From Candidatus Saccharimonadales bacterium (GTDB taxonomy: Bacteria; Patescibacteriota; Saccharimonadia; Saccharimonadales; UBA10212), in the NCBI GenBank assembly GCA_035758565.1, contig DASTXL010000001.1, forward strand, positions 203,242 through 267,241: a stretch of 64,000 bases of DNA, written 5' to 3'. The notes beneath the pieces were generated by a model. The model was given only the letters and a program-made list of their open reading frames with translations. It was not told the DNA's origin and ran no database searches. Positions 8,367 through 49,200 of this stretch are shown piece by piece. The translations under genes were made by a program, and so were the position numbers. Within the stretch, counting starts at the first letter, position 1. Every line of letters begins with the position of its first letter.

Positions 8367-8382
8367 AATGTTGAATTTAGTA

Positions 8383-8455: not shown

Positions 8456-8477
8456 GCTCTGATAAGGAGGATAAATA

Positions 8478-8747: not shown

Positions 8748-8774
8748 GAATATATGAGTACATTCCATTTAATA

Positions 8775-8861: not shown

Positions 8862-8878
8862 AAGCCGGAGGCGCAAAT

Positions 8879-9283: not shown

Positions 9284-9293
9284 GGAGTAAATA

Positions 9294-9830: not shown

Positions 9831-9831
9831 G

Positions 9832-33046: not shown

Positions 33047-33103
33047 TTAACTAACGTGGGAGGCGCTAAGAAACGCCGCATGCACCACGAAAGGAGAGTA
33101 ACC

Positions 33104-34015
33104 ATGGCAGAAGCCAAGAAAAAGCAAGTCAAAAAGGCAGACGTAGTTGCCGAGACCGTAGTTGAGGGCAATGTGCCCGAAGTCAAGGTAGAAAAAGAAG
33201 TCGTTCAGACCCCAGCCGAGCCAAAAACTACTGCTAAAGCCGGCAAGCGCAGCGCCAAAGCTGCTCGCGAAACCGAAGAGAAGGAAGCCAAAGAAGCCCG
33301 CAAGGCAGAAACACCGGCAGAAGCCACTAAGCCAGCGGCCAAACCGCAGCAATCTCGCACCAAAGCTGAGCGTGCCGGTAAAAAATACCGCGAAGCCGCC
33401 AAGCTCGTAGACAGAGAAAAGTTTTATACTCAAGAGGACGCCCTAGAGCTTGCTACCAAGACCAGCCCGTCCAAGTTCGACGCCACTGTCGAACTTCATA
33501 TTAACCTAGGTGTTGATCCGCGCCAGGCTGATCAGAACGTCCGCGATACTGTTAGTTTGCCAGCCGGTACCGGTAAGGACGTCCGCGTTGCCACTCTAGC
33601 CAGTGACGACGACGCCGAAAAGCTGTTTGCTAAGTTAGACAAAGAAGAAATCGACTTTGATATCCTGGTCGCTACACCTGGCATGATGCCTCGTTTGGGT
33701 AAATATGCCCGCTTGCTCGGCCCGCGCGGCTTAATGCCTAACCCCAAGAGCGGCACCATTACTAACGACGTAGAGGCGGCTGTAAGCGAAGCCAAAGCCG
33801 GCCGTGTTGAATATCGCGTAGATCAAAGCGGCATCATCCACATTGGCATCGGCAAGGTAAGCTTTGGCAAAGACAAGTTGAATCAAAATGCCGAGGCTGT
33901 AATGTCATCTATCCGCGCCGCCCGTCCTGCCAGCCTTAAAGGTAACTACATCAAGGCCATTACTGTCAGCACCACCATGGGCCCTGGCATAAAAGTAGAG
34001 GTTAGCGGCCGCTAA
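33104..34015 (+). CDS. rplA: 50S ribosomal protein uL1 with a ~100-aa Lys/Glu/Ala-rich N-terminal extension
   Basis: The ATG at 33104 follows an AAAGGAGAG SD. The uL1 core includes [23 protein letters not shown]. Confidence 0.9.
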
Positions 34016-34497
34016 GCTCGCTCGTAAACTTCCATCTTAAAATCGTAAGGATTTTTTTGATCTTTAGCCCGTGTTTCGCTCGAAATTAGCCTCCAATCTC
34101 GGGGATCAAACTCAAAAAACCGGTCGCCTTTGGGCAAAAATTTGACAGTGTTTAAGTAAAGCCTTGTCGCTTGCGGCAGGGCTTGCTTAAATATCGACTC
34201 GCCACCGATTATAAACACCTGGTCTTCGTCGTCGACCAGGCTAAGTGCTTCTTCTAGCGAATGGGCCACTTCAGCACCCGGGCTGGGCGTGTAGCTTTGG
34301 TTGCGCGTAATAACAATATTGCGACGTTCTTTGAGTGCCCGGCCGATATTCTGGTGTGTTTTGCGGCCCATTATTATGGGGTGGCCAGTGGTAATTCTCT
34401 TAAAGTAGACCAGGTCAGCCGGCAAATACCAAGGCGTGCCTTTGGAGCTTCCAATGACATTATTTTGCGCTCGTGTAACTATTATCGAGATGTTCAT
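34012..34497 (-). CDS. folA: Dihydrofolate reductase
   Basis: [15 protein letters not shown]...[26 protein letters not shown] is typical of DHFR. Confidence 0.85.
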
Positions 34498-34563
34498 TTT
34501 ACAACCTTAAAAAATATTATCCTGCATATGTTAACTGGTATTATGGAGGCAAAGGAGGCATTC

Positions 34564-36198
34564 GTGCAAAAAGATAAAAATCCTCTTGTGGAATACAAGA
34601 TGCAGATTTCACCTGCCGGATATGTCTTCTTGGGCGATCGCGTTACTGACGTCGAGGGCAATATTTACGCTTTTAACGGTAAGACTTCTCCGCTACTGAT
34701 TGCCGCCGCTATGGCCCGTCTTAGCCGTCGAGGCAGCGATTTACGAGAAATTTTTGTTGATGAATTCGGCATGGCCGGTGAAAAAGATGCTTCGGGCCTA
34801 ATTCACCGCGTGGTTACCGCATATGGCGACGACAGCGTGCAGCAGCTCACCGGTTTGCATTTTGTGGTAGAGGACGCCTCTAATCTATTAACCAAAATGC
34901 TGGAATGGGGACGGTTTGCTGCCTACCTAGAACAATCTACCCGCTACATTTACTATGACGAAAAAGATAAAAATGGACAGTACAAATATTACGTTCCAGC
35001 CGATTTAGACCCAGAGACAGAAGCTCAATATTGCCGAATTCACGACCAGATTTTTGATCTTTATTCTGGCATGGTCCACAAGTTGACTCGCCATGTGCGC
35101 AAAGCTAATCCCGCACCTGAAGACGTCCGCGAAAAAATTGCCTGGAGAGGCGCCACCAAAGCCCAAGCCTGCGACACCATCAGACCAGTCTTGCCCGTGT
35201 CTACAAGATCGACTGTGGGCATTTATGCTTCGGCTCAGGCCGTTGAAAGTCTTATTTTGCACCTTCTCAGCGAAGATTTGCTAGAAGCCCGCTTAGCCGG
35301 TCAAAAGATCTTAGAAGAAGCTCGCAAAGTTATTCCGGCCTTTTTAGAGCGAGCCGACAAGCCAGATCGTGGCGGCGCTACCACGGCTTACCGAGCCAAT
35401 ACCCGCGCGGCCATGTCTAAACTCGCTAAAAAATATCTGCCAAAAGAATCTAAAGATTTTGATAGCGAAGTAAAGCTTATAGATTACTGGCCAAAAAATG
35501 AGTCAGAAATTATCAATCACCTGCTGTTCGCCGAAAGCAATCTATCAACCGCAGAGCTAGAAAAGGCGGTTAGAAAACTCAAGAAAGCCGATAAGCGAAG
35601 GATCTTTGATACTTATATGGGCAAAAGACTTAATCGCCGCCATCGTCCTGGCAGGGCCCTGGAGTTTCCGCACTACTTATGGGAAGTCACGGCCGATTAC
35701 GGCACTTTTCGTGATCTGCAGCGCCATAGGGTTATCGACGGTTTTGAGTGGCAAGATTTGAGCACCGCTTACGGTTACGAGGTGCCGGAGCTTGTTCGAG
35801 AAGCAGGCTTGGAGCAAGATTTTCATAAGTGTTTTGAATTATCAGAAGAACTCCATCAACTGATGCTTCAAAAAAAATACGTAGAAGAAGCCCAGTATGC
35901 AACTTTGTTCGGGCACAGGATGCGCTACCGATTTATGCTAAACGCCCGAGCAACTTTTCATTTCTTAGAACTAAGATCGAGTCCGCAAGGTCATCCAGGC
36001 TATCGCCGCATTTGCATGCAGATGCATGAGCAACTCAAAAAAGTCCACCCCATGCTAGCTAGCGCCATGCGTTTTGTAAATCAAGACGAAGACCCCAAAC
36101 TAACTAGAATGGCGGCCGAACTGGCCACTCAATATAAGCTAGAAAAGCTCGACAACCTAGAAAAACAGGCCGAGGCCGAGATGGAGAAGAACCAGTGA
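34564..36198 (+). CDS. thyX: Tandem-domain (pseudo-dimeric) ThyX-type FAD-dependent thymidylate synthase
   Basis: GTG at 34564 lies 5 nt after an AAGGAGG SD (alternative in-frame ATGs at 34528 and 34543). The first half has LEQSTRY (the S-x-RY part of the ThyX motif) but WGR in place of RHR. The second half has LQRHR but lacks the RY. Confidence 0.65.
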   Translation: MQKDKNPLVEYKMQISPAGYVFLGDRVTDVEGNIYAFNGKTSPLLIAAAMARLSRRGSDLREIFVDEFGMAGEKDASGLIHRVVTAYGDDSVQQLTGLHFVVEDASNLLTKMLEWGRFAAYLEQSTRYIYYDEKDKNGQYKYYVPADLDPETEAQYCRIHDQIFDLYSGMVHKLTRHVRKANPAPEDVREKIAWRGATKAQACDTIRPVLPVSTRSTVGIYASAQAVESLILHLLSEDLLEARLAGQKILEEARKVIPAFLERADKPDRGGATTAYRANTRAAMSKLAKKYLPKESKDFDSEVKLIDYWPKNESEIINHLLFAESNLSTAELEKAVRKLKKADKRRIFDTYMGKRLNRRHRPGRALEFPHYLWEVTADYGTFRDLQRHRVIDGFEWQDLSTAYGYEVPELVREAGLEQDFHKCFELSEELHQLMLQKKYVEEAQYATLFGHRMRYRFMLNARATFHFLELRSSPQGHPGYRRICMQMHEQLKKVHPMLASAMRFVNQDEDPKLTRMAAELATQYKLEKLDNLEKQAEAEMEKNQ

Positions 36199-36896
36199 GC
36201 GTATATAGCAACAAGCAGATCTTTGAAGCCATCAAAACCGGGCATATTGTTTGCTACCCATTGGTGAAAGACAACGTGGCCGGTAGCAGCGTAGATGTTA
36301 CGCTTGGCGAGTGGTTTTACCGCACCGAACGCACCGGCAGCAGCGGTTTTTATAACCCCTTTGACATCAAAGACGTGGATCGCTACTTTGCCGGACCCTA
36401 TAAAGCCGAGATTCATAGCAAATGGGCTAAAGCTAACGGGCGCCAACTGTTCGAGGGCATTCCGGCCAATCACCCAATTATTGTCTTGCGACCTGGCGAG
36501 CGCATTTTGGGCCACACGCACGAGTTTGTAGGCATTAAGGCCCCTGGCACCAGCACCATGCAGGCCCGCAGCACCTGGGGCCGAAACGGCGTGGCTGTTT
36601 GCCTAGACGCCGGCTGGGGCGACCCCGGTTACATTAACCGCTGGACCATGGAGATATATAATATGAACCAGCACGAGAGTGTTGTTTTGCCCGTAGGCGA
36701 GCGTGTCGCCCAACTTGTTTTTTACGAAACCGGACCCGTAGACGGCGAATATAAGAAACTTAGCGGCAAATACCAATCGGATAAGAGCTCGGATCTAGCC
36801 ACTATAGTTAAGAACTGGCGACCCGAACAAATGCTGCCTAGGGCTTATAAAGACGAGCGGCGCAAGCCAAAAAATGTTAAAGGGTTAGAGGTTTAG
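36195..36896 (+). CDS. dcd: dCTP deaminase-family protein (long form)
   Basis: The N-terminal SNKQIFEAIKTGHIV...AGSSVDVTLG and later GWGDPGY...TMEIYN resemble the Dcd/dUTPase fold. Confidence 0.6.
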   Translation: MSVYSNKQIFEAIKTGHIVCYPLVKDNVAGSSVDVTLGEWFYRTERTGSSGFYNPFDIKDVDRYFAGPYKAEIHSKWAKANGRQLFEGIPANHPIIVLRPGERILGHTHEFVGIKAPGTSTMQARSTWGRNGVAVCLDAGWGDPGYINRWTMEIYNMNQHESVVLPVGERVAQLVFYETGPVDGEYKKLSGKYQSDKSSDLATIVKNWRPEQMLPRAYKDERRKPKNVKGLEV

Positions 36897-36921: not shown

Positions 36922-38838
36922 ATGCAGAACCCATCTGGCACATTTATAGTCATCGAGGGTGCCGACGGCTCCGGCAAATCCACTCAGTTCAATATCCTAA
37001 AAGCCCGTCTAGAGGCGATAGGGCACGAGGTAGATGTTTTTAAATTCCCGCAGCACCACGAACCATCGGGCTATTTCGTGCATAAGTACCTGAACGGCGG
37101 ATACGGCCCGATTGATAAAATAAGCCCCTACACAGCCTCTTTGTTTTATGCGCTAGACAGATTCGAAGGAGCGCCGGCCATACGTCAATCAATGCAAAGC
37201 GGACATATAGCGTTAAGCGACCGCTATGTGGGCGCCAACATGGCTCACCAGGGGTCCAAATTTACAAATCCGGCAGAACAAAGAGGTTTCTTTGTGTGGG
37301 AAGACGGCTTGGAGTTCGAACTCTTAAACATACCTCGACCAACTCTGACTATTTTTTTGCACGTTCCAGCCGAAATATCTCAAAGACTGTTGGCTGAACG
37401 CGCCAAAAAAACTGGCGTAGCCTTAGACGAGCACGAAAAAAATGTCGAGCACCTTAGAACAACCGTCTCAACATATGAAAAACTTTGCCAGTTGTTTCCG
37501 AACGATTTTAAGTTGGTAGATTGCACCGAAAATGGCAAGCTGCTGAGCGTACCGCAAATCAACAATAAGATTTGGGATGTTGTTAAGCCTATTCTGCCCG
37601 ATAAGCCAAGCAAACCAGCTCACAGCGTAACGGTAAAACTCAACGAGACTGCTCAGTCTAAATCAGCGCCCAAGACCGATACGTCTGAGGTTCCAAAGAA
37701 GGCGGTCAAAGAAGCGGTAAGCACAAAATTAAGCCTGGCGGCCATATTAGAGGCTCGCCTGGCCGGATTAGACATTCAGCCTGAGCTAGATTGGTCAAAA
37801 GCCGGCTACGAGTACTTTAAACCACAGGATTTGCCTAAGAAAACAGCAGCTAAGTACGAGCAGTTTATGGAAGGTTTTGTGGTGTTTCACCGGGCCATGA
37901 AAGGCAAACTCAAAAAAACCGGTGCTAGCGAGGCTTTGCTCTATGACGCCTTGCCGCTAGCGGCGCAATTCGAAGTTAAGGTCCCTTTGCCAGAGAATGA
38001 ACAAGGCCTGTTAGAACAGTTTTCTGGTAGTCAAAATGTGGAGCTGCGCCAACTTGCAGGCCAGCTAAACGGCAATTCTAAGAGTAAAGCCAGCGTCCGC
38101 GACTCTAATCCGCCAGAATCTATCGATAAAATCCTTGCCCGAATCGCCGGTGAACATTTGCCGCAAGCTTTGGCACAACAACCTGAGACAGTAGAGCTGG
38201 TAGAAGCCCAGCCACGCAATGAATTTAAGGTTTTGGCCGATGTTTTATACCCGTATAGTAACTTGCCCAAACTAGACCTAGAGGCCGAGATAGACCAGTG
38301 GGGCTACCAGCAAAAAACAAAGGCCTTAGAAACCGCGCTAAAAAACTCGCCGTCAGAGGTAATGCCCAAACTTCAGTATCGGTTTGACCTAACGCTTGAC
38401 TACCGGCTCTTAAGTCACGTGGTTGGCCTGGTTAAAGATATTAAGCTACAGCCGGCCACGCCACGCTATGGCTACGACGTTCCTCACGCGGTTGACGAAG
38501 CCGGCATAACAGAAGAGTATTTAGAGTGTTTTGACAAAAGCCTGGAGCTATTTAGCACCTTGCAAGCCGCTAGCCGTGACGACTTGGCTGTTTATGCCAC
38601 CTTAACCGGGCACGAGAACCGCTGCCACGTTACTTGCAGCTTGGCGGACCTAAAGACCATTAAAGATAAAAGTCTGTCTAGCGAACTTAACCAACTGATT
38701 GATCAATTGCTAGAAAAGATAAGCGAACACCACCCAATAGCTGCCGCCAGCCTGGGTGAACAATTGTCGGAGGAAGCGCCAAAGTCAGCACGCAAAAAAC
38801 GCCCTCGCCGCCGGGGCGGCAAATCCAAGAAGTCCTAA
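36922..38838 (+). CDS. tmk: Thymidylate kinase fused to a degenerate ThyX-like C-terminal domain
   Basis: The N-terminus has FIVIEGADGSGKSTQ and DRY (Tmk). The C-terminal ~200 aa (PRYGYDVPHAVDEAGITEEYLECF...YATLTGHENRC) parallel thyX residues AYGYEVPELVREAGLEQDFHKCF...YATLFGHRMRY but lack RHR. The tail is basic. Confidence 0.65.
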   Translation: MQNPSGTFIVIEGADGSGKSTQFNILKARLEAIGHEVDVFKFPQHHEPSGYFVHKYLNGGYGPIDKISPYTASLFYALDRFEGAPAIRQSMQSGHIALSDRYVGANMAHQGSKFTNPAEQRGFFVWEDGLEFELLNIPRPTLTIFLHVPAEISQRLLAERAKKTGVALDEHEKNVEHLRTTVSTYEKLCQLFPNDFKLVDCTENGKLLSVPQINNKIWDVVKPILPDKPSKPAHSVTVKLNETAQSKSAPKTDTSEVPKKAVKEAVSTKLSLAAILEARLAGLDIQPELDWSKAGYEYFKPQDLPKKTAAKYEQFMEGFVVFHRAMKGKLKKTGASEALLYDALPLAAQFEVKVPLPENEQGLLEQFSGSQNVELRQLAGQLNGNSKSKASVRDSNPPESIDKILARIAGEHLPQALAQQPETVELVEAQPRNEFKVLADVLYPYSNLPKLDLEAEIDQWGYQQKTKALETALKNSPSEVMPKLQYRFDLTLDYRLLSHVVGLVKDIKLQPATPRYGYDVPHAVDEAGITEEYLECFDKSLELFSTLQAASRDDLAVYATLTGHENRCHVTCSLADLKTIKDKSLSSELNQLIDQLLEKISEHHPIAAASLGEQLSEEAPKSARKKRPRRRGGKSKKS

Positions 38839-38865: not shown

Positions 38866-39084
38866 ATGCAAAAAGTAGCTACTCGAGTATTTATTGGCGC
38901 GTCGATCGTTTTTGGTATTCTGGGCGTCATCCAGGTTATAACAATGCCAGACAATGACAACGATGCGTCAGATTTTAACAAGATAATCGTGCGGCTTCTA
39001 ATGGCAACCGTCTTTATCGTCTTGCCTTCATTCGCATTAAGCATTGCCGGCAAGTATTTAAACGATAGTTCCAGAGGTCGATAG
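38866..39084 (+). CDS. Small two-TM membrane protein
   Basis: 72-aa ORF with two hydrophobic helices. Confidence 0.4.
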   Translation: MQKVATRVFIGASIVFGILGVIQVITMPDNDNDASDFNKIIVRLLMATVFIVLPSFALSIAGKYLNDSSRGR

Positions 39085-39092
39085 GCAAGAAT

Positions 39093-39674
39093 ATGGGAAA
39101 GCTAATATATTTATTCACCACATCGCTGGACGGCTACGTCGCCGATAAAAATGGCGATTTTAGTTGGTCGAAACCAACCGAGGAGGTCCACTTTTTTGTC
39201 AACGACCAATTGCGTAACGTCGGCACGATTCTAATGGGTCGCAATTTGTACGAGACCTTAAAAGCTTGGGACGACATTCCTACTAAAGGGGTAGGCGGCA
39301 TCATGGACGGCCCAAGTCCAGCCATGAATGATTATTCTAAGATATGGCACGCCGCTAATAAGGTAGTTTATTCTTCTTCGCTTTCTGAGCTCGCGATAGA
39401 CAACGCGAAGATTGAGCGGTCATTTGATCCTGAAGCAGTCAAAAAGCAAGTGGCCGAATCGGCTCATGATTTTGATATCGGCGGTCCGCATCTGGCCGCC
39501 CAGGCCATCAAGGCTGATATTATCGACGAATACCACCAAATTATCGCTCCGCTAATCCTTGGCGAAGGTAATTTCTGGCTGCCCGGCGGGAACCGCAACA
39601 AGCTGGAGCTGGTAGATATGCGCAAGTTTGAAAACGGCTTCGTGCACCTGCATTATAGAAAGGCTGAAGAATGA
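39093..39674 (+). CDS. RibD C-terminal domain / dihydrofolate reductase-family protein
   Basis: TSLDGYVADKNGDFSW and ILMGRNLYE motifs are typical of RibD_C proteins. Confidence 0.6.
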   Translation: MGKLIYLFTTSLDGYVADKNGDFSWSKPTEEVHFFVNDQLRNVGTILMGRNLYETLKAWDDIPTKGVGGIMDGPSPAMNDYSKIWHAANKVVYSSSLSELAIDNAKIERSFDPEAVKKQVAESAHDFDIGGPHLAAQAIKADIIDEYHQIIAPLILGEGNFWLPGGNRNKLELVDMRKFENGFVHLHYRKAEE

Positions 39675-40231
39675 AGAAATTAATCATGTGGAATTTGGTC
39701 ACGCTCGATGGGTTTTTTGAGGGCGAGAAGCCGTGGGATTTATCTTTCCACGGCCTGGTTTTCGATAAAGAGCTAGAGGATTTTACGATCAAGCAGCTAG
39801 ATTCAGCCGACGCAGTTATTTATGGCGAGAATACATACAAAGGCATGGCCGAATACTGGACCGACCCCGACCAAGTAGACGATATTAAGACCGAACCTAT
39901 AAATAAAATTAAAAAATATGTTTGTTCGCCTACACTTAAGACTGCCGATTGGCAAAATACCACGGTTATTAAAGACGCCGTGAGCGAGATACCCAAATTG
40001 AAGCAGGAAGGCGACGGCAATCTGTTCGTTTTTGGCAGCGCCATCTTGAGCGAATCGCTTACGCGCGCGAACCTGTTCGATGAATACCGCTTGTGCGTAG
40101 TGCCGGTGTTCTTGGGCAAGGGCAGGCGGCTGTTCAACGACGGCCTGCCGTATCAAAAATTAAAACTACTAAAATCTCAACCCCTACAATCCGGCGCCAT
40201 CATCCTTACATACGCTCCAAGCTCAAGTTAG
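39671..40231 (+). CDS. RibD C-terminal domain / dihydrofolate reductase-family protein (paralog)
   Basis: VTLDGFFEG, VIYGENTY and LFVFGSAILS motifs. Overlaps the upstream paralog by 4 nt. Confidence 0.55.
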   Translation: MKKLIMWNLVTLDGFFEGEKPWDLSFHGLVFDKELEDFTIKQLDSADAVIYGENTYKGMAEYWTDPDQVDDIKTEPINKIKKYVCSPTLKTADWQNTTVIKDAVSEIPKLKQEGDGNLFVFGSAILSESLTRANLFDEYRLCVVPVFLGKGRRLFNDGLPYQKLKLLKSQPLQSGAIILTYAPSSS

Positions 40232-40262
40232 CGGGAGACCCAAAAACCCAGTTTGATATAGT
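40231..40262 (+). promoter_or_regulatory. Island cassette repeat R1 (GC box - A tract - extended -10)
   Basis: GCGGGAGACCCAAAAACCCAGTTTGATATAGT. Six nt separate the -10 box from the ATG at 40269. Confidence 0.6.
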
Positions 40263-40268
40263 GAGCCT

Positions 40269-40838
40269 ATGCGAACTCGAATAATTCTTCATGGCGGCAA
40301 CTCCGATAGAAGCACCGAAAAGAACGCCAAGTTCTTTAAAGAAATTGTCGATGGCGTGGGAACTAATACGGTAAAAGTCTTATGTGTCTATTTTGCCCGT
40401 CCGGAACACCGCTGGGATGATTCGTACGAAGAAGATAAATATATTTTCCAAAGAATAGATACCGACAAAGATGTAGAAACCGAATTAGCTACTTATGATT
40501 CATTCGTAGACCAAATAGCCGCTGCGGATATTGTGTTTATAAATGGCGGCCATAGAGGGCACTTAAAAGAAACTCTGCTTTCGATCGGTGTGGAGCGCTT
40601 TAGACAGATGGTTGAAGGCAAAACTCTAGTGGGCATAAGCGCCGGAGCGAACATTCTTTCAAAATATTATTATTCGTCGGTAGCTCAAGACATCCGAGAG
40701 GGAACTAACTTCTTGAACATAAAGCTGTTTACTCACTTCTCAGAAGATGAACCTGAACAGCTCAATGATTTAAAGTCGTATGCCGAAGATCTGCCTGTAG
40801 TCACGATTCCCGAAGAAGAGTATTTAGTTATCGAGTAG
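40269..40838 (+). CDS. Peptidase S51 (dipeptidase E-like) family protein
   Basis: ILHGGN, FINGGH and GISAGAN motifs. Confidence 0.5.
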   Translation: MRTRIILHGGNSDRSTEKNAKFFKEIVDGVGTNTVKVLCVYFARPEHRWDDSYEEDKYIFQRIDTDKDVETELATYDSFVDQIAAADIVFINGGHRGHLKETLLSIGVERFRQMVEGKTLVGISAGANILSKYYYSSVAQDIREGTNFLNIKLFTHFSEDEPEQLNDLKSYAEDLPVVTIPEEEYLVIE

Positions 40839-40855
40839 GCACCCGCAGAAAATCA

Positions 40856-40893
40856 GGCGGAGCGGACCCAAAAAATCCCCAGTTTGTTATAAT
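40856..40893 (+). promoter_or_regulatory. Island cassette repeat R2
   Basis: GGCGGAGCGGACCCAAAAAATCCCCAGTTTGTTATAAT. Six nt separate the -10 box from the ATG at 40900. Confidence 0.65.
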
Positions 40894-40899
40894 TCATTC

Positions 40900-41145
40900 A
40901 TGGCAGAGGATGAATTTACTAAACTTTTCAAATACATCACCGAACGTTTCGACAAGGTAGATGCAGAGCTTGAGAAAAAAGCCGATGCAGCTCTGGTAGA
41001 AAAAGTTCTGGCTTTGATTGATAAGATTGCCAAACAACAGGAAATCAACGACGAAGAACGCCTGGTCATGGGCCACCAGTTGGACAGAATGGACCGCTGG
41101 GTCCATGAGCTGGCCGACAAGATTGGTTATAAACTTTCAGTTTAA
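40900..41145 (+). CDS. Small coiled-coil hypothetical protein
   Basis: 81-aa ORF with a leaderless-type start. Confidence 0.45.
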   Translation: MAEDEFTKLFKYITERFDKVDAELEKKADAALVEKVLALIDKIAKQQEINDEERLVMGHQLDRMDRWVHELADKIGYKLSV

Positions 41146-41158
41146 GACTGTAGTGATT

Positions 41159-41287
41159 ATGAAGCTCAAAGGAAAAGTAGCAAAAATTGGCAAAGCGACG
41201 GTTGTTGTATTCGATAAAGCCATGTTCGAAAAGTCAGGTTTGAAGGTTGGTGATTTGGTAAGCCTAGCTGGTATCAAAAAGCTTTAA
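41159..41287 (+). CDS. Very small AbrB/MazE-like (SpoVT-AbrB fold) candidate
   Basis: 42 aa: MKLKGKVAKIGKATVVVFDKAMFEKSGLKVGDLVSLAGIKKL. The call is a weak pattern match only. Confidence 0.25.
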   Translation: MKLKGKVAKIGKATVVVFDKAMFEKSGLKVGDLVSLAGIKKL

Positions 41288-41296
41288 CGGCTAACT

Positions 41297-41557
41297 GCTC
41301 CATTTGTTCTGGCAAAACGGAATCTAAAAATCTCGAACCAAAGCTACGTTCTTTACCAAAGAACCAAATGTTTTTCATCCATTTCTTGGTCGCGAAGAAA
41401 CGGAAGCCAAAGAACGACAGGCAACTCACTCCCGCAGGACTGTTTCGTACGTTCATGAAAAGGGAAGACTGCGGAACTCGTGCTTTGGGCACTCAAACAG
41501 TCCTCGCTTCAGACTTTTCATAAACTTCTTTAGCAGCTCTGGTTCGCTCGAGCCTGG
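41297..41557 (+). repeat. Repeat family copy A (modules 1+2)
   Basis: Aligns with 43389-43604 (same strand) and with the reverse complement of 47505-47732. Ends in GGTTCGCTCGAGCCTGG. Confidence 0.8.
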
Positions 41558-41570
41558 GGTTTTTGAGCCG

Positions 41571-41609
41571 GGCGGGGCGGACCCAAAAAATCCCAAGATT
41601 GCTTATGCT
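41571..41609 (+). promoter_or_regulatory. Island cassette repeat R3 (divergent -10 part)
   Basis: GGCGGGGCGGACCCAAAAAATCCCAAGATTGCTTATGCT. The downstream gene has its own GGAGGAAGC SD. Confidence 0.5.
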
Positions 41610-41656
41610 TGCAATGTTGAATCGTTAAGAATATATTTCTGTTAATCGGAGGAAGC

Positions 41657-42016
41657 ATGGCAGAGAGAACACATCCAAATGAAAAGTACGTAGAAAATCT
41701 ATTTAACGACGCTATTAATTGGCTAGGTGTAGTTGGAGAATATGACCATAATATTCCAAAGGAAGATAATCCCTACAACCGGTCGGTAGATAAGGCCCTA
41801 AACTTCTTAGCTAGCCAAATCGCCGAAAGTTCAATAGATATAGCCATGCTACTATCTACCTTAGAACGACAAGCACAGACAGTAGTTGCCGAATCTGATG
41901 ACCTCTATGGGGACTTGGACAGAGTTATTAGGACCAATCAAATGTATGTGCTAGCCAGGACGATGAACGCATATTCTTCGCCAGAACGTATTGTTCACAT
42001 CCCGCTGGAAGTGTAA
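41657..42016 (+). CDS. Hypothetical protein
   Basis: 119-aa ORF with a CGGAGGAAGC SD. Confidence 0.45.
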   Translation: MAERTHPNEKYVENLFNDAINWLGVVGEYDHNIPKEDNPYNRSVDKALNFLASQIAESSIDIAMLLSTLERQAQTVVAESDDLYGDLDRVIRTNQMYVLARTMNAYSSPERIVHIPLEV

Positions 42017-42027
42017 ACCCTCAGCCG

Positions 42028-42065
42028 CTGAGGCAAACCCAAAAAATCCCAAGTTTTGATATAAT
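42028..42065 (+). promoter_or_regulatory. Island cassette repeat R4
   Basis: GCTGAGGCAAACCCAAAAAATCCCAAGTTTTGATATAAT. Six nt separate the -10 box from the ATG at 42072. Confidence 0.6.
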
Positions 42066-42071
42066 ATTCTT

Positions 42072-42167
42072 ATGAATAAAGTAGCAACAAAGCCGAACGT
42101 TCAGGTCTGGACAAAGAACTTCATCAAGAAGTACTCTCCGGCTTTAAAAGAGCTGTCCAAAAAATAA
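42072..42167 (+). CDS. 31-aa candidate antitoxin partner of Doc
   Basis: MNKVATKPNVQVWTKNFIKKYSPALKELSKK. It ends 6 nt before the doc start, in the usual upstream position of an antitoxin. Confidence 0.3.
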   Translation: MNKVATKPNVQVWTKNFIKKYSPALKELSKK

Positions 42168-42173
42168 AAATCT

Positions 42174-42560
42174 ATGAACCAAATATCGGTCGACGATGTT
42201 GTTTACATCCACGACCATATTATTGCCGCTTCTGGCGGTCTTACGGGACTAAGGGATAAAGGACAGCTCAAAGCTTGCCTAGCCAGGCCTTTTCAAAGCG
42301 CTTTTGGTGAAGAAACATATCCCGATCTGTTCGAGAAAGCAGCCGCCTTACTGGACTGCATTGCCAATGATCATCCGTTTGCAGATGGCAATAAACGAAC
42401 AGCCATGGCGTCGGCAGTTATCTTTCTGGTGTCGTACGGTATATCTACCGACTTCACGAACCAAGAATACGAAGATTTCATGCTCCACGTCGTTAATGAT
42501 AAGCCGAGCATCCAAGAGATTGCCAACTGGCTTCGCCAACACGGCGACATAATTATTTAA
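42174..42560 (+). CDS. doc: Fic/Doc-family toxin (death-on-curing type)
   Basis: HPFADGNKRTA matches the Doc variant of the Fic motif, and the 128-aa size fits. Confidence 0.8.
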   Translation: MNQISVDDVVYIHDHIIAASGGLTGLRDKGQLKACLARPFQSAFGEETYPDLFEKAAALLDCIANDHPFADGNKRTAMASAVIFLVSYGISTDFTNQEYEDFMLHVVNDKPSIQEIANWLRQHGDIII

Positions 42561-42566
42561 AACACA

Positions 42567-42603
42567 GGCGGGGCGGACCCAAAAAATCCCAGTTTGATAT
42601 AGT
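42567..42603 (+). promoter_or_regulatory. Island cassette repeat R5
   Basis: GGCGGGGCGGACCCAAAAAATCCCAGTTTGATATAGT. Seven nt separate it from the ATG at 42610. Confidence 0.65.
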
Positions 42604-42609
42604 TTTTAT

Positions 42610-43374
42610 ATGTACAAGTCATTTACAGCAGATGATTATCGCAAACACTTAAAGCTGCCGGCCGATTATGTTGTTGATGGTTTTTTAATTTACGGCACGT
42701 TTAGAAAGTTCCCATACGAACAGTTGGAGGATTCACTCAAAAAACAAAGGATAGAATATCAAACCGCAAAAATTGGCGACGAATATTTTGACCCAGTGCT
42801 TACGTTTAGGGTAGGCAATAATAATTATTGGTTCACTATTGCTTACGGCGGAACAATGCTAAGCGAATATCTACATTTAGCCTGCACGTTTGGCAGCAAG
42901 AAGAACCTTTTGATAGGTAGTTGCGGCGGGCTCAAAAAAGGCGCGTCGAGTTTGGACATCATAGTTCCGGACTGGAGCTATGGCGACGAAAGTTCCGCGA
43001 GGTCCTATCAGAACGAAAAAGATGGTAAGCAGTATTCGGACACTTCGATTTCTGATAGGTTGGCAGATAAACTAGCCGATAAATACAAGGTGCACCGTGG
43101 TCCAACCGTCACTCATCAAGCAATGCTTGGTGAAACCTGGGAAGACATTGAGCGCTGGGCACAACAGGGCTATATTGGCGTAGAGATGGAAGCATCTACT
43201 GTTTTTGCGGTATCGAATCATTTTAAAGTACCCTCGGCTGCCATTCTTCACATTGGCGATAACCTTATAGAAGAAGAAACGGTTATGGACATAAATTACG
43301 AAACCAACCGCGATTTACACAGGCAAGTTTCTCAAGACATCTTCGATGCAGCCGTTGAAGAATTACTTAAATAG
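42610..43374 (+). CDS. Nucleoside phosphorylase-superfamily (PNP_UDP_1-like) protein
   Basis: GSCGGL and GVEMEAS motifs. Confidence 0.5.
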   Translation: MYKSFTADDYRKHLKLPADYVVDGFLIYGTFRKFPYEQLEDSLKKQRIEYQTAKIGDEYFDPVLTFRVGNNNYWFTIAYGGTMLSEYLHLACTFGSKKNLLIGSCGGLKKGASSLDIIVPDWSYGDESSARSYQNEKDGKQYSDTSISDRLADKLADKYKVHRGPTVTHQAMLGETWEDIERWAQQGYIGVEMEASTVFAVSNHFKVPSAAILHIGDNLIEEETVMDINYETNRDLHRQVSQDIFDAAVEELLK

Positions 43375-43388
43375 CTTTTAGACGCAAA

Positions 43389-43604
43389 CTCAAAAATCCA
43401 TGTTCTTTAGCAAAGAACCAAATGTTTTCAACCATTTGATTCGGCAAACGGTTGACCAAAGCCGACAGGCATTCGCTCCGGCAGGGCTGGTTCGTACGTT
43501 TTTAAAAAGGGAAGACTGCGAAACTCGCGGATTGGCGCTTCAAACAGTCCTCGCTTCAGGCTTTTCATAAACTTCTCACCAATCTCTGGTTCGCTCGAGC
43601 CTGG
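43389..43604 (+). repeat. Repeat family copy B
   Basis: Shares GTTCTTTagcAAAGAACCAAATG...AAAAGGGAAGACTGCGaAACTCG...CAAACAGTCCTCGCTTCAG...GGTTCGCTCGAGCCTGG with copy A. Confidence 0.8.
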
Positions 43605-43641
43605 ATTTGATTAACGTAAAATTAAAGTCCCTATATTTGCT

Positions 43642-44550
43642 ATGATGAATCTCATGAAAACGGACTATTCTCTTGAATGGTTTCAGGAGAGAGCATTTAA
43701 ATCACTTAAGAAAATCAAAGAAGGCCAGTGGGACTATTCAGATCCATCATTGATCTACGTGCCTGACGAGGAAGAAAAATACGAAACAGTTCAGCAGAGC
43801 GGAAGTCGATACCACGAACTTATCACGGAACCAGAAAAGAAGTATCTGGAACAAATTGCACCAATAGTAGCAAATGCGCTGCCAAATGATTTTGAATATA
43901 TCGATCTCGGTCCTGGCAATGCACATAAAGAACAATATATTTTTGACGCGCTCAAAGCCCTGGGAAAAAAATTTAAGTACATCCCTGTAGACATAGATAA
44001 AAAATATCTTGATCTTGCTGCTCGGCATGCAGAGCGACAAGGTATCGAGGTTTCAGATGCTCAGCTACTCTTCGAAGAATTACCGTACAGATTGCCAGCA
44101 AGTCATACCCCGCGCTTTGTTTCCATCGGAATGACGTTTACGAACTATGCGCCTGACACGATCTTGCCGCTGTTGAAGAAGATTGCCGGTCAATCCGGAT
44201 ACGTCTTGACTAATTCACAGATCAGGGAACGGCTAGATATGGCCGCGGTCACGGATGTTTATCAGGATGAGGTTTATGCGTTACTGGAGACAAAGATAAG
44301 GTTGCTAGGACTTCGTCCCTCAGATCTTGAAAAGCAATGGTGCGACGACGGCATCAGAGCCTGGTTTAAGATAAAGAATGTCAGCCAAGATCTCAGCAAG
44401 CTCGGCGTCAGAGCTGGTGATGAGTTCTTAGCCTATTATTTCTTTAGGCCGACTATAAAATCGCTTTCAGAAAGCTTCAGCCGACACTTCGACAGCTTCA
44501 AACTGCTCGATATTAACGCCGCCTTTGTGGCCGGCCTACTCTTTACCTAA
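43642..44550 (+). CDS. SAM-dependent methyltransferase (EgtD/Methyltransf_33-like)
   Basis: YIDLGPGNAHKEQYIFDAL resembles the SAM-binding motif I of EgtD-type enzymes. This is the only supporting motif. Confidence 0.35.
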   Translation: MMNLMKTDYSLEWFQERAFKSLKKIKEGQWDYSDPSLIYVPDEEEKYETVQQSGSRYHELITEPEKKYLEQIAPIVANALPNDFEYIDLGPGNAHKEQYIFDALKALGKKFKYIPVDIDKKYLDLAARHAERQGIEVSDAQLLFEELPYRLPASHTPRFVSIGMTFTNYAPDTILPLLKKIAGQSGYVLTNSQIRERLDMAAVTDVYQDEVYALLETKIRLLGLRPSDLEKQWCDDGIRAWFKIKNVSQDLSKLGVRAGDEFLAYYFFRPTIKSLSESFSRHFDSFKLLDINAAFVAGLLFT

Positions 44551-44554
44551 AACC

Positions 44555-44596
44555 GGGCGGGGCAAACCCAAAAAATCCTCTTATTGTTAATATAGT
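44555..44596 (+). promoter_or_regulatory. Island cassette repeat R6
   Basis: GGGCGGGGCAAACCCAAAAAATCCTCTTATTGTTAATATAGT, followed by a second TGTTATAAT. Confidence 0.5.
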
Positions 44597-44671
44597 CATA
44601 TTATGTTATAATTTACTTATCTTTGGAAGCAATTCCTCAGATTGTAATGTCATCCTATTCTAGGAGGCATC

Positions 44672-45133
44672 ATGGACGATCAGACGGTGAGCCCCGAGGC
44701 TCGCACCGCTGCCAAGTGGTGGGCAGACCAGCTGCGTGGGCCGGCGAGGATGGACAACGGATCGCTTGAGTACTCCATGGAGACCGGCGACCCGAACCAC
44801 TTCGACCAGGCCATCACGACGATGGGTCTCGCAGGGATACTCAACGAGCGCGAACGCTCCGGCCTCAGCGACGAGCAGATCTCCGTGTTCGAAGAAGCGC
44901 TCGCAAGGCGCGTCCAGGAGCGGCTGCAGCAGTCCGGTGAGTTCGGCGTCACGATCGACGTCGACTACCACCCGGACTACCTGCTCGTCGACAGCGCGGA
45001 CGAGGCCGGCATTCGTGTCGGCATGACGCTCTTCCCCTGGAAGACGACCATGTGGATCGAGACCGGAAGCGTCAGGGTGAGCTGCGGCTACCGCGGCCCG
45101 ACCGAGGACCTGTCGATCGCCACCGCGTCATAG
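44672..45133 (+). CDS. High-GC hypothetical protein (horizontally acquired, actinobacterial-type codon usage)
   Basis: 153-aa ORF with a TAGGAGG SD. Codon third positions are almost all G/C (GAC, GAG, CTC, ACG, ATC), unlike neighbouring genes. A GC-rich terminator hairpin follows (GGGCGGGAGC...GCTCCCGCCC). Confidence 0.65.
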   Translation: MDDQTVSPEARTAAKWWADQLRGPARMDNGSLEYSMETGDPNHFDQAITTMGLAGILNERERSGLSDEQISVFEEALARRVQERLQQSGEFGVTIDVDYHPDYLLVDSADEAGIRVGMTLFPWKTTMWIETGSVRVSCGYRGPTEDLSIATAS

Positions 45134-45254
45134 GAGAAACAGCCCTCATTGCCGTTTCCACGGGCGGGAGCCGTAGAGCTCCCGCCCCAGCGCCATGAAC
45201 GCTTCTGCATTTGCAGTCAAGCGCCTTGGCGCTTTTTTCGATTCTAAAATCATC

Positions 45255-45286
45255 GGGGCGGACCCAAAAAATCCTGGTCTGTATTC
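45255..45286 (+). promoter_or_regulatory. Island cassette repeat R7 (divergent 3' part)
   Basis: GGGGCGGACCCAAAAAATCCTGGTCTGTATTC. A GATATAAT box lies at 45301-45308. Confidence 0.5.
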
Positions 45287-45331
45287 TTCGCTAAAACGAA
45301 GATATAATTGCGGTAAGGATGGTCTAAGAGT

Positions 45332-46507
45332 ATGAGCCGAGAAAATAGAGTTTTTAAATTAACCTTTCTTGTCGTCGCCAAGGACTGGGACGAAGTAATT
45401 ACTGTCTTCAAAAAAGAATTAGGAATCACAAAAGTTAAAGAGGACATTGGTGACTACAAGATGGCGGGTCACTATATTGTTGGATTAGATTTATCTGATA
45501 GAGACCTAAGCGACGGTTTCTATGGAAAGATTCATGCAAGTTCAACAATAACTCTGTTAAGCGACAAGGCATCTGATGAGCGAGCACAAAAGATCCTGGA
45601 CCTCGCAAGACCAATTGAGCTAAAGCTTAGAGAGTTAATTATCTATGCTCACGAGCTAGTTGACGCGTACTTCGACATTATTCAACCTAAAAGTCCTGTG
45701 GCGAAGAGGTTTATGGGCTCTAAGCAATTAGTGGGCAAGGAAGTTTTAGATTCGGCCGTTTCATTTCTCGACCTAGGGGAAATTATAAAAGTTCTGGGAA
45801 GTGATGGGAATGAGGTCGACACAACCAGACCCACAGACGACATAGTTAAACTGCTAGAGGCAACTTCGAACTTTGAACAATTTAAGGAAAAATTGATTAA
45901 GAAGTTTAAGCGCCTAACGGTCTGGGATGTTATTGCGAAGACGGTTTTGCAACAACCGATTTCTTGGTTAAGTATCAAAGATGACTTAAACGAGCTAAAA
46001 AACATCCGTAATGTAGCCGCTCATTTTAGAATCGCAACGCCGGATAATCTTAAGAGAGCGACCGAATTGTCAGGAAGTTTACTACCCCAGCTATCGAGAA
46101 AGCCGGACCCGGACCGAAAAGCAATTGAGGAGATGGCTCAAACTTTTTCTGTGTGGGCTAAAGAATACGAGTTGTTCAAGGAAGTAAATAAAGCCGCACT
46201 TGATGCTATAAAGGTTAATAATAGTTTTCTTACGCAGGCCACTAAAGACATTTCAAACTCTTTCAGATCTGCAATCCCAGACATAAATTCTTCGATATCA
46301 AACTTTAATACAGTTTCAGGTTCGATATATCCAGATTCTTTATTGCGAAGTATGGCGTTTCCTGATATTTCGTCGATAAATCCAGGAGCGGGTTTGCATA
46401 AGGCTAGTCCTGATATCGGGAAATTCTTGGGCAGTGAATACGATAGCGACCAGGGTGACAGCGAAGATGAAGATAGCACTTCTATGGCGCCTGTTAAGAA
46501 AAAATAA
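45332..46507 (+). CDS. HEPN-domain protein (Rx4H; Swt1/Abi-like)
   Basis: LNELKNIRNVAAHFR contains the R-x4-H HEPN signature in the usual helical context. The C-terminus is low-complexity and acidic. Confidence 0.5.
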   Translation: MSRENRVFKLTFLVVAKDWDEVITVFKKELGITKVKEDIGDYKMAGHYIVGLDLSDRDLSDGFYGKIHASSTITLLSDKASDERAQKILDLARPIELKLRELIIYAHELVDAYFDIIQPKSPVAKRFMGSKQLVGKEVLDSAVSFLDLGEIIKVLGSDGNEVDTTRPTDDIVKLLEATSNFEQFKEKLIKKFKRLTVWDVIAKTVLQQPISWLSIKDDLNELKNIRNVAAHFRIATPDNLKRATELSGSLLPQLSRKPDPDRKAIEEMAQTFSVWAKEYELFKEVNKAALDAIKVNNSFLTQATKDISNSFRSAIPDINSSISNFNTVSGSIYPDSLLRSMAFPDISSINPGAGLHKASPDIGKFLGSEYDSDQGDSEDEDSTSMAPVKKK

Positions 46508-46514
46508 AGACATA

Positions 46515-47477: not shown

Positions 47478-47504
47478 GTCGAACGTCGACTTGTTCCTGA
47501 TATT

Positions 47505-47732
47505 CCAGGCTCGAGAAAACAGAGAGAGTGAGGAGCGAGTTCAAAAGTCTGAACCGAGGACTGTTTGAGCGCCAAACGGCGAGTTCCGCAGGTTCACTTT
47601 TGGCGATTGTGCGAGCGACCATCTAGTTTTCGAATGCCTGCCGTTTCTTGGCTTCCGTTCTTTCGCGGCCAAAGAATGGAAGAAAACATTTGGTACTTTT
47701 CAAAAGTACATTCTTGCCAGAACAAAATGGAA
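47505..47732 (-). repeat. Repeat family copy C (inverted orientation)
   Basis: Its reverse complement aligns with copy A. On the plus strand the core 47506-47640 is closed by CAGGCTCGAGAAAAC...GTTTTCGAATGCCTG. Confidence 0.8.
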
Positions 47733-47761
47733 CAAAAAATAGTTAAGCGTACAATAAAGTT

Positions 47762-48025
47762 ATGGCCTACGAACCGGACGAGGAAGACCTTAAATGGATG
47801 AAAACTCGCAAAAGCGGGCATACGTACGCAGAGCGCGCTAAATGGCGTGAAGAATACGCCAAAACCCACCCCGCTAAAGAAATTGAGAGCCATGGCTGGC
47901 GAGACTTCTTTATAGGTTTAGCTATTATGATAATCATTATTTTGATAGCTTTTGCTCTGGGCGGTAACGACCCTACTACTGACGGAAATTGTAATCAAGC
48001 TAACTTTTCGGGTTTGGGCTGTTAA
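47762..48025 (+). CDS. Small membrane protein
   Basis: 87-aa ORF with one TM helix (FFIGLAIMIIIILIAFALGG). Confidence 0.4.
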   Translation: MAYEPDEEDLKWMKTRKSGHTYAERAKWREEYAKTHPAKEIESHGWRDFFIGLAIMIIIILIAFALGGNDPTTDGNCNQANFSGLGC

Positions 48026-48265: not shown

Positions 48266-48790
48266 ATGGCTTTATCCAGAGAGAAAAAAGAAGAAGCCGT
48301 TAGTGAAGTTACGCAACTCCTGAAAGATTCCAAATTGACGGTCGTAGCCAAATACCAGGGCACGAGCGTTAAGTCTATGCAGGAGCTTCGCCGCGCTTCG
48401 CGCGATAACGGCACCCGAGTCCTCGTCGTCAAGAACCGCTTATTCAAAAAAGCGGCCGCTGGTGACGAACGATTTAAAGACACTGATCTAAGCGAACTGA
48501 ACGGACAGCTGATGTACGCCTTCAACAATGAAGACGAAGTCGCACCCGCCCAGAGCCTGGCCAATTTTGCCAAAAATGAGCCGCAGATCGAATTTGTCGC
48601 CGCCTTGACCCCAGAAGGTAAACTTCTACCTGCCGAGGAGGTCAAAGTCTTGGCCAGCTTGCCAAGCAAGAACGAGCTTATCGCTCAGACTGTCGCAATG
48701 CTTCTATCGCCCGTTAACGACGTTACAAACGCGCTTTCCGGCAACCTGTACGCTCTATTAGACGGCGTGGAAGCAAAGGCTACAGCGTAA
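48266..48790 (+). CDS. rplJ: 50S ribosomal protein uL10
   Basis: MALSREKKEEAV start and LRRASRDNGTRVLVVKN motif, upstream of rplL. Confidence 0.9.
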   Translation: MALSREKKEEAVSEVTQLLKDSKLTVVAKYQGTSVKSMQELRRASRDNGTRVLVVKNRLFKKAAAGDERFKDTDLSELNGQLMYAFNNEDEVAPAQSLANFAKNEPQIEFVAALTPEGKLLPAEEVKVLASLPSKNELIAQTVAMLLSPVNDVTNALSGNLYALLDGVEAKATA

Positions 48791-48816
48791 ATATTAATTA
48801 GGAAGGAATTGAAATC

Positions 48817-49200
48817 ATGGCAGATTTAAAGAATTTAGCTAAAGAACTCACAGGCTTAACTGTCCTGGAAGTCAACGAACTTAAGACCATCCTTAAGGAT
48901 GAATACGGCATCGAGCCGGCCGCCGCAGCTGTAGCTGTTGCCGGCCCAGCCGCTGGTGGCGCTGAAGGCGGAGCCGCCACGGAAGAGAAGAGCGAATACG
49001 ACGTCATGCTAAAAGACGCCGGTGCTCAGAAGGTTGCAGTCATCAAGGCTGTTAAAGATATCACCGGCCTAGGCCTGGGCGAGGCTAAGGCTATCGTAGA
49101 CGGCGCTCCTAAGGCTGTTGTCGAGAAAGTTAGCAAAGAAGACGCTGAAAACGCCAAGAAGGCTTTAGAAGAAGCTGGCGCTACAGTCGAACTCGCCTAA
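48817..49200 (+). CDS. rplL: 50S ribosomal protein bL12
   Basis: Ala-rich hinge, and the C-terminal domain [27 protein letters not shown]...[10 protein letters not shown]. Confidence 0.95.

Follow-up and report, generated by a model that had tools for sequence, protein, structure and literature searches.

In a 64,000-nucleotide (nt) stretch of the Candidatus Saccharimonadales assembly GCA_035758565.1 (contig DASTXL010000001.1, forward-strand positions 203,242 to 267,241; this whole stretch is called the window below) we find a gene that joins a thymidylate kinase (Tmk) to a domain derived from the thymidylate synthase ThyX. In the explanation that we consider quite probable, its product is a working Tmk followed by a ∼370-residue dead ThyX pseudoenzyme, which descends from a bifunctional Tmk-ThyX and has been retained for a non-catalytic job, as its fold, a TPRY loop and a GH[KR]xR motif have been kept and a polybasic tail has been gained. 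The gene (36922..38838, + strand) is one unbroken open reading frame (ORF) of 638 amino acids (aa), whose translation is a 100% match to the deposited 'hypothetical protein' P0001 from a 483,507-bp Candidatus Saccharimonadales metagenome-assembled genome (MAG) contig. It comprises an intact Tmk, a disordered linker and a ∼350-aa ThyX-homologous domain, and the strings quoted for it in a preliminary description (GADGSGKST, DRY, YRLLSHVVG, PRYGYDVPHAVDEAGITEEYLECFDKSLELF...YATLTGHENRC and the matching thyX stretch) are all present. Its parts are listed here, with the predicted local distance difference test (pLDDT) taken from AlphaFold2 (AF2) models and dUMP standing for deoxyuridine monophosphate.

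36922..37596, + strand: thymidylate kinase domain, aa 1-225, apparently intact (Pfam PF02223, residue conservation)
37597..37716, + strand: Lys/Pro/Ser-rich linker, aa 226-265 (pLDDT <50 at aa 250-260 in the full-length model; pairwise identity 0.23)
37717..38121, + strand: N-half remnant of a long ThyX, aa 266-400 (in hhalign, aa ∼292 on pairs with ThyX 147 on)
38122..38757, + strand: C-half remnant of a long ThyX, aa 401-612, predicted to be catalytically dead (identity 0.40; Foldseek ThyX matches)
38449..38484, + strand: QPATPRYGYDVP, the kept 'ExS.RY' portion of the ThyX motif, putative dUMP-phosphate loop (translation checked; aligned to 'QEFSQRY' of the ThyX of Paramecium bursaria chlorella virus 1 (PBCV-1) via the long-ThyX profile)
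38608..38622, + strand: GHENR, the family motif GH[KR]xR (translation checked; near-invariant across four classes of relatives)
38758..38838, + strand: low-complexity polybasic C-terminal tail, EQLSEEAPKSARKKRPRRRGGKSKKS and stop (translation checked; charge census)

BLASTP aligns aa 296-624 with residues 146-521 of the ThyX encoded by the adjacent stand-alone gene (E 3e-17, 23% identity, 380 columns), and profile-profile comparison with the same ThyX in hhalign returns a probability of 100% (E 1.1e-58, 333 columns). When an AF2 model of the C-terminal 373 aa (aa 266-638; pLDDT 84.5, predicted template modelling score (pTM) 0.75) is used as a Foldseek query, the best 50 PDB matches are all ThyX/flavin-dependent thymidylate synthase (FDTS) or ThyX-like PolB entries at probability 1.0, with TM-scores on target of 0.56-0.70. 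These are the profile and structure comparisons that the preliminary description had called for, and they bear out its claim that the C-terminus is colinear with thyX. The extent that it gave, ∼200 aa and the second half of ThyX only, does not hold, as the ThyX-like region covers aa ∼266-612 (∼350 aa), which corresponds to a two-domain 'long' ThyX minus roughly its first quarter. On a hidden Markov model (HMM) of long ThyX the window protein is covered from position ∼141 and scores 110 bits, compared with 880-980 bits for active enzymes, and the dead domain is without ∼110-140 N-terminal ThyX residues. Standard models do not register it, as the protein has no match to Pfam Thy1 (PF02511) even at E ≤ 1 and none to TIGR thyX (TIGR02170) at E ≤ 0.1. 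PDB sequence searches with the neighbouring ThyX, the long-ThyX profile and the dead-domain profile returned nothing at normal thresholds; at E ≤ 10 the ThyX proteins of PBCV-1 and Mycobacterium tuberculosis surfaced, and that alignment served motif mapping only. Set beside canonical ThyX (Thermotoga maritima TM0449, 1o26; PBCV-1 A674R, 2cfa/4fzb), the window domain has the same fold and keeps the S/T-x-R-Y of the ThyX motif, but it lacks the equivalents of RHR, H53, N163, R165, R174 and H178 as well as the Pfam Thy1 match, and it derives from a two-domain single chain whereas the canonical subunit has ∼220 aa.

The loss of catalytic residues was followed in ∼450 relatives aligned to the long-ThyX HMM and sorted into stand-alone (96), active fused (92), intermediate and dead (180) classes, with T. 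maritima residue numbers that we take to be those of the 1o26 sequence. Most catalytic positions are filled in 96/96 stand-alone and 92/92 active fused sequences, and the H53-region His is conserved in 95/96 and 86/92, respectively. The window protein, like the dead class throughout, has lost the equivalents of the H53 region, R78-H79-R80, N163, R165, R174 and H178. The RHR positions read V-V-G in the window protein (YRLLSHVVG) and A/S/N, S/L/A and G/L/A across the dead family, and the ELRxSPQGHPGYR segment bearing the R174 and H178 equivalents is absent from the window's C-half remnant. The N-half equivalents of S88/R90 and R147 are likewise lost in the dead class, EQSTRY being absent from the window's N-half remnant. 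Because essentially all residues of the flavin adenine dinucleotide (FAD) and dUMP sites are substituted or deleted, the C-terminal domain is, judged by its sequence, catalytically dead, and it is not expected to bind FAD. The preliminary description had reached the same view from the replaced RHR residues, to which essentially all the other FAD/dUMP-site residues can now be added. Residual or cryptic thymidylate synthase activity was considered and rejected, as every FAD-binding residue of the solved ThyX structures is substituted or deleted.

Against this loss stands a set of residues kept throughout the dead class, namely Q..T-P-R-Y-G-Y-x-V-P, Y457, G-H-[KR]-x-R, CFD, PxNE and HP, which the window protein carries in the forms QPATPRYGY, CFDKS and GHENR, among others. 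T513, R515 and Y516 correspond to T. maritima S88, R90 and Y91 of the ThyX-motif loop, which we take to be the binder of the dUMP phosphate. The GH[KR]xR motif is near-invariant in all four classes and, in the dead domains, retains its Gly in 180/180, its His in 171/180 and its Arg in 178/180 sequences. A polybasic tail (net charge of at least +5 in the last 20 aa) is found in 86% of dead-domain proteins, compared with 1-4% of active fused, intermediate and stand-alone ThyX proteins. The best-conserved portion of the dead domain is the C-half remnant (pairwise identity 0.40, as against 0.27 for the N-half remnant, 0.23 for the linker and 0.67 for Tmk).

The Tmk half, which the preliminary description had rightly placed at the N-terminus, matches PF02223 (Thymidylate_kin) over aa 11-204 (E 5e-19, 69.1 bits vs a cut-off of 27) and has both the GADGSGKST P-loop and the DRY motif. 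The nearest solved relative of aa 1-225 is M. tuberculosis thymidylate kinase (TMPK; 1g3u, E 3.7e-17). Among 118 aligned family members, whose Tmk domains share a mean pairwise identity of 0.67, the P-loop, D15, R80, R101 (of DRY), N106 and E172 are invariant and D169 is present in at least 90%; D15, R80, R101, N106, D169 and E172 are the equivalents of the dTMP/Mg-site residues D9, R74, R95, N100, D163 and E166 of the M. tuberculosis enzyme. Since these residues are invariant or nearly so, we infer that the Tmk half is a functional kinase that converts dTMP to dTDP. It misses the NCBIfam equivalog cut-offs (TIGR00041, 64.1 vs 83.25 bits; the mycobacterial type PRK07933, its best though sub-threshold match, 108.2 vs 193 bits), and these scores are read as those of a divergent Tmk member and not of a failed fold. 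The window protein thus shares its active-site equivalents with M. tuberculosis-type TMPK (1g3u; PRK07933) but falls below the family cut-offs and bears a 410-aa C-terminal extension.

The origin of the dead domain becomes apparent from its relatives. Searches with the neighbouring ThyX return many ∼770-800-aa proteins in which Tmk is joined to a complete ThyX (e.g. P0110 and P0136), and which JGI annotates as 'thymidylate kinase/thymidylate synthase ThyX'. Compared with P0110, the window protein is 47% identical in Tmk and 35% identical over the last ∼220 aa (E 7e-38), so that its dead domain is nearer to a fused ThyX than to the ThyX of its own neighbour (23%, E 3e-17). The same affinity is seen in single residues: the Arg of QxxTPRYGY is present in 92/92 active fusions and 169/180 dead proteins but in 0/96 stand-alone ThyX, the Pro of T-P-R-Y in 92/92 and 153/180, and the Asp of CFD in 84/92 and 166/180. 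As the stand-alone long ThyX proteins do without the TPRY Arg, it is not needed for catalysis in long ThyX, and its distribution suggests a fusion-related, non-catalytic role of the loop. Gene order is decisive. In five other contigs (L001, L003, L004, L010 and L011) the dead version occupies the slot secE-nusG-rplK-rplA-dcd-[gene]-rplJ-rplL-...-dnaX-dnaB, and the active 772-aa fusion P0136 holds the same rplA-dcd-X-rplJ slot (L009), which in most of the Saccharibacteria sampled is home to an intact bifunctional fusion. The window gene therefore is the positional orthologue of a bifunctional Tmk-ThyX with a dead ThyX half: downstream of dcd in the rplK-rplA...rplJ-rplL locus a single ORF combines Tmk with long ThyX and carries the T-P-R-Y/CFD signature, but its ThyX half is incomplete (110 vs 880-980 bits). 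The preliminary description had seen in the domain a paralogue of the adjacent thyX. This part of it has to be given up, and an origin by duplication of that gene was rejected on identity (35% vs 23%), clade signature and synteny. With the bifunctional fusions the window protein shares domain order, the Tmk plus long-ThyX layout, the dcd-rplJ slot and the signature; it differs from them in being without about 140 N-terminal ThyX residues and all FAD/dUMP catalytic residues, in its long-ThyX HMM score (110 vs ∼950 bits), and in having a polybasic tail in place of their conserved ...TRLAAE..TQYKL C-terminus.

Inactivation appears to have happened more than once. The long-ThyX HMM scores of Tmk-fused proteins run continuously from ∼980 down to ∼60 bits and include full-length, motif-less intermediates. 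In a rough neighbour-joining (NJ) distance tree of Tmk domains, 157/171 dead-class proteins, the window's included, form one pure clade, and the remaining 14, together with most intermediates, nest among active fusions. This suggests a single ancient inactivation, after which the lineage diversified widely, and several more recent, independent events. P0019, one of those nested among active fusions, has the other Tmk type, which it shares with some active fusions. Two distinct Tmk types are in fact fused to ThyX (A3 alignment), an M. tuberculosis-like one with FPRY...YLNG.YG and one with REPDSQSDLTARAIRQL (P0103, P0115, P0136, P0137 and P0019 were compared with P0104, P0110, P0129 and the window protein). 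Dead-ThyX derivatives are known for both, and the two types imply either two fusion events or domain replacement.

Both forms are widespread. The C-domain alone as query found 19 clusters at 30-49% identity, a C-domain profile run against 1.84 billion proteins found 1095 representatives at E ≤ 1e-3 and 356 at E ≤ 1e-30, and a full-length profile found 541 clusters at E ≤ 1e-10. The best 120 of these 541 clusters are Saccharibacteria proteins of 582-691 aa named 'dTMP kinase', 'thymidylate kinase' or 'hypothetical protein', and all but one of them have Tmk-family Pfam matches only; 118 of the best 120, when aligned, are 615-691 aa long. Overall, the available relatives are at most 51% identical to the window protein. 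We also surveyed the peptide T[PV]R[YF]GY[DE]VP in one genome per GTDB species, and 80 of the 149 loci were listed and classified. Nearly all of these 80 come from MAGs titled Saccharibacteria/Saccharimonadia, while a few bear generic or odd labels, and they comprise 61 complete active fusions, 5 of the same kind that are split or cut by contig ends, 3 intermediate and 11 dead versions. The intact fusion thus is the commonest state among the sampled Saccharibacteria loci (61 complete and 5 partial of the 80 listed). Intact fusion genes with the catalytic motifs of both halves lie in L020-L092 (e.g. L021, 8846-11173) and in L009 (8001-10319). In L084 an active-looking Tmk-ThyX is split into two overlapping ORFs (7540-8793 and 8778-9863, covering ThyX HMM positions 4-163 and 173-534), which could reflect a sequencing error, a true frameshift or recent pseudogene formation. 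For the window gene a frameshift or assembly error, by which the preliminary description would have seen its fusion undone, is excluded, as the same architecture is conserved in hundreds of independent assemblies (NCBI, JGI, ENA, Logan).

The window also contains a complete ThyX. The genes that define the slot and its surroundings are the following.

33056..34015, + strand: rplA (L1), upstream anchor of the slot (Pfam Ribosomal_L1, E 4e-51)
34012..34497, - strand: folA (dihydrofolate reductase, DHFR), divergent from thyX (Pfam DHFR_1, E 1e-53)
34528..36198, + strand: stand-alone long-form thyX, about 550-556 aa, two Thy1 halves, catalytic motifs intact (Pfam Thy1, E 1.2e-33, two stretches; P0020 'FAD-dependent thymidylate synthase'; start checked)
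36195..36896, + strand: dcd (dCTP deaminase-like; Pfam DCD, E 9e-33)
48266..49194, + strand: rplJ-rplL, downstream anchor of the slot (tblastn with L10 and L12 of L010, 68% and 78% identity)

The start of dcd overlaps the thyX stop by 4 nt and its end lies 25 nt before tmk, and thyX, dcd and tmk are probably co-transcribed in the window; a promoter/terminator scan of 32-39.5 kb gave counts at chance level. In L001, L003, L004, L009, L010 and L011, too, the gene that precedes the tmk fusion is dcd. The window carries two insertions in this slot: folA-thyX (∼2.2 kb) separates rplA from dcd, and ∼9.4 kb of unrelated genes separate the tmk fusion from rplJ. The adjacency of thyX and tmk is peculiar to the window among the sampled loci: no thyX lies within 10 kb in any of 11 other dead-domain loci (0/11, species-representative genomes), and in two other genomes the genes are ∼25-50 kb apart on the contig (thyX at ∼44 kb and the dead fusion at ∼93 kb of the 207-kb JGI contig Ga0265338_10000054; folA/thyX at ∼4 kb and the dead fusion at ∼29 kb of JACPKG010000022.1). 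Dead version and stand-alone thyX share a contig in 3/3 checkable genomes, the window and these two, co-occurrence being judged only where both genes lie on one contig. This agrees with a relaxed constraint on the fused ThyX after a second synthase had become available.

The stand-alone long ThyX is homologous to the dead domain over 333 profile columns and lies with it in the window's dTTP pathway cluster, but it belongs to the other clade (C-half TxRY Arg in 0/96), is catalytically complete and has no Tmk; elsewhere its usual locus is beside folA and a GlcD-like oxidase. Aligned and mapped to PBCV-1 ThyX, the two halves of the neighbouring ThyX keep complementary active-site sets. In the N-half, ExSxRY and the R147 equivalent are intact and RHR reads W-G-R; in the C-half, the H53 region, RHR and the N163/R165/R174/H178 equivalents survive, but Gln stands in place of R147 and the TxRY loop contains no Arg. 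By its sequence the stand-alone long ThyX resembles a pseudo-heterodimer within one chain, which would have half as many active sites as usual. Two genomes carry the divergent folA-thyX pair, the window (34012-34497 on the - strand, 34528-36198 on the + strand) and L012 (3394-3885, -, and 4004-5674, +), a pairing that is of note as ThyX yields no dihydrofolate. A GlcD-like FAD oxidase follows thyX in L005, L007 and L012.

Several further features of these loci were recorded. The ∼9.4 kb at 38866-48265, where relatives have ∼150-220 bp, form an island-like insertion in a ribosomal-protein locus and include tandem RibD_C (DHFR-like) paralogues (39093-39674 and 39671-40231), a peptidase S51, a Fic/Doc protein (42174-42560) and a PNP_UDP_1 phosphorylase (42610-43374). 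In L009 a DNMK-family (PF21448) deoxynucleotide monophosphate kinase gene (6456-7211) stands between rplA and dcd. ORFs of ∼170-230 aa with weak Tmk-HMM matches, which may be the same DNMK-family gene, lie upstream of the fusion gene or dcd in 15 other active-fusion loci (L023, L029, L034, L039, L044, L047, L061, L063, L066, L069, L075, L078, L086, L088 and L089), and no such ORF is present in the dead-version loci examined. The window's L1 has a ∼130-aa Lys/Ala/Glu-rich N-terminal extension (33056-33460), its Pfam match starting at aa 135 of 319, and related loci encode L1 proteins of 307-326 aa. Such basic, low-complexity extensions may be commonplace in these genomes, and the polybasic tail has to be read with this in mind.

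Taken together, we envisage an ancestral bifunctional Tmk-ThyX between dcd and rplJ, whose thymidylate synthase activity would have been taken over in the window lineage by a separate stand-alone thyX paired with folA. The fused ThyX half would then have lost ∼110-140 N-terminal residues and essentially all residues of its FAD, folate and dUMP sites, retaining the fold, the QxxTPRYGY phosphate-binding loop and GH[KR]xR, and a polybasic tail would have been added. The remnant would now act as a module for oligomerisation or as a scaffold that the fused kinase has come to need, and might still bind a nucleotide phosphate through T513/R515/Y516. A structural job of this kind is the most likely one, given that ThyX is an obligate oligomer and that the kinase evolved while joined to it; nucleotide-phosphate binding may be a second. 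There is precedent for both parts of this scenario. The bifunctional DHFR-thymidylate synthase (DHFR-TS) enzymes of protozoa and plants covalently couple consecutive steps of thymidylate metabolism, and in the trypanosomatid S-adenosylmethionine decarboxylase (AdoMetDC) prozyme an inactive paralogue has been preserved in a structural or regulatory capacity. These are different enzymes with different folds; in the window protein the dead partner is covalently joined to the enzyme of the following step. Several observations weigh against our explanation. The N-half remnant, although its fold is predicted confidently by AF2, evolves almost as fast as the linker (0.27 vs 0.23), which fits weak constraint. 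A fixed interface between Tmk and remnant finds no support in the full-length AF2 model (pLDDT 90.6), given a pTM of only 0.65 and the disordered linker. The window Tmk has FPQH where the family has FPRY, the Tyr of which aligns with Tyr39 of M. tuberculosis TMPK, presumably a dTMP contact. Finally, the co-occurrence with thyX comes from three dead-version genomes and the order of inactivations from a rough NJ tree.

The conserved remnant could also be explained by docking, in which the dead domain replaces a chain of the ThyX pseudo-tetramer or binds the surface of the stand-alone ThyX, tethers Tmk to it and so hands dTMP to the kinase, restoring the ancestral bifunctionality non-covalently. 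This is the substrate channelling or complex with ThyX that the preliminary description had proposed, and its main hint was the adjacency of thyX. The covalent ancestor, in which proximity of both activities was once selected, speaks for this, as do the stand-alone long ThyX (59% identical to fused ThyX) carried by dead-domain genomes, the obligate oligomerisation of ThyX together with the kept fold, and the contiguity of thyX-dcd-tmk in the window (4-nt overlap, 25-nt gap). That contiguity is, however, unique to the window among the sampled loci, the remnant has lost ∼110-140 N-terminal residues and conserves its N-half poorly, and its best conserved feature, the TPRY Arg, was discarded by the stand-alone clade, which argues against simple subunit equivalence; we regard docking as unlikely. 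Remnant and tail could also form a neofunctionalised binding module, a sensor of dUMP/dTMP or a tether to nucleic acid or the replication machinery that would couple dTTP supply to DNA synthesis. Here the sole active-site element kept is the dUMP-phosphate loop (Arg 169/180), GH[KR]xR is retained in 171-180 of 180, the tail is specific to the dead class (86% vs 1-4%), and dnaX and dnaB follow a few kb downstream in the locus. Yet the partner residues of the nucleotide site (R78, R147 and R174 equivalents) are gone, the Arg is also conserved in tail-less active fusions, so that Arg and tail may be unrelated, and basic extensions on other proteins such as L1 make a compositional habit possible; this module too seems doubtful to us. 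A broader form of both ideas, a regulatory or tethering module repurposed repeatedly from bifunctional Tmk-ThyX, acting through T513/R515/Y516, GHxxR and the tail to sense dUMP/dTMP or to hold the kinase at ThyX, at nucleic acid or at the replication machinery, is likewise only tentatively entertained.

That the domain is a neutral relic, functionless and persisting since clean deletion is rare or destabilises the kinase, is suggested by the near-linker divergence of the N-half, by the independent intermediate states of decay and by the full-length pTM of 0.65. A relic would not be expected to stay in frame at 615-691 aa across a clade whose Tmk has diverged to 67% mean identity, to hold several residues invariant or nearly so in 180 sequences, to fold confidently in prediction and to gain a new tail; Saccharibacteria genomes, moreover, are very small, and ∼1.1 kb of useless coding sequence should vanish from them. 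We therefore think this improbable. An artefactual fusion, or an unusual thymidylate synthase that is still active, is next to negligible: nothing was found in its favour, the failure of Pfam Thy1 fits either divergence or loss, and the architecture recurs in hundreds of independent assemblies with all FAD-binding residues substituted or deleted. The reading that we prefer hence remains a working Tmk with a dead ThyX remnant kept for a non-catalytic job.

Neither the dead nor the intact Tmk-ThyX form has apparently been described, although the components (Tmk, ThyX, pathway fusions, pseudoenzyme domains) are of known kinds. In the full-text literature, with most subscription journals outside its scope, we found no Tmk-ThyX fusion and no ThyX pseudoenzyme, and a ThyX phylogeny paper makes no mention of fusions. 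The preliminary description, too, knew of no account of the fusion; the architecture is not rare, as public databases contain it many times over, labelled 'dTMP kinase' or 'hypothetical protein'. Hundreds of such entries hide a ∼350-aa ThyX-derived domain, and in metabolic reconstructions the dead domain should not be counted as a thymidylate synthase and a separate thyX should be sought. Textbooks cite ThyX as an example of an alternative essential enzyme, and it is also a drug target. A natural bifunctional Tmk-ThyX, apparently common in Saccharibacteria, comes with a graded inactivation series that probes what the ThyX scaffold does beyond catalysis and illustrates the birth of a pseudoenzyme once a redundant enzyme copy appears. 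The dUMP-site Arg whose conservation is confined to Tmk-linked ThyX domains, whether active or dead, marks a candidate second site in the fused enzymes, and, if the remnant were indeed a regulatory or tethering module, it would constitute a pseudoenzyme-based control point for dTTP supply in Saccharibacteria.

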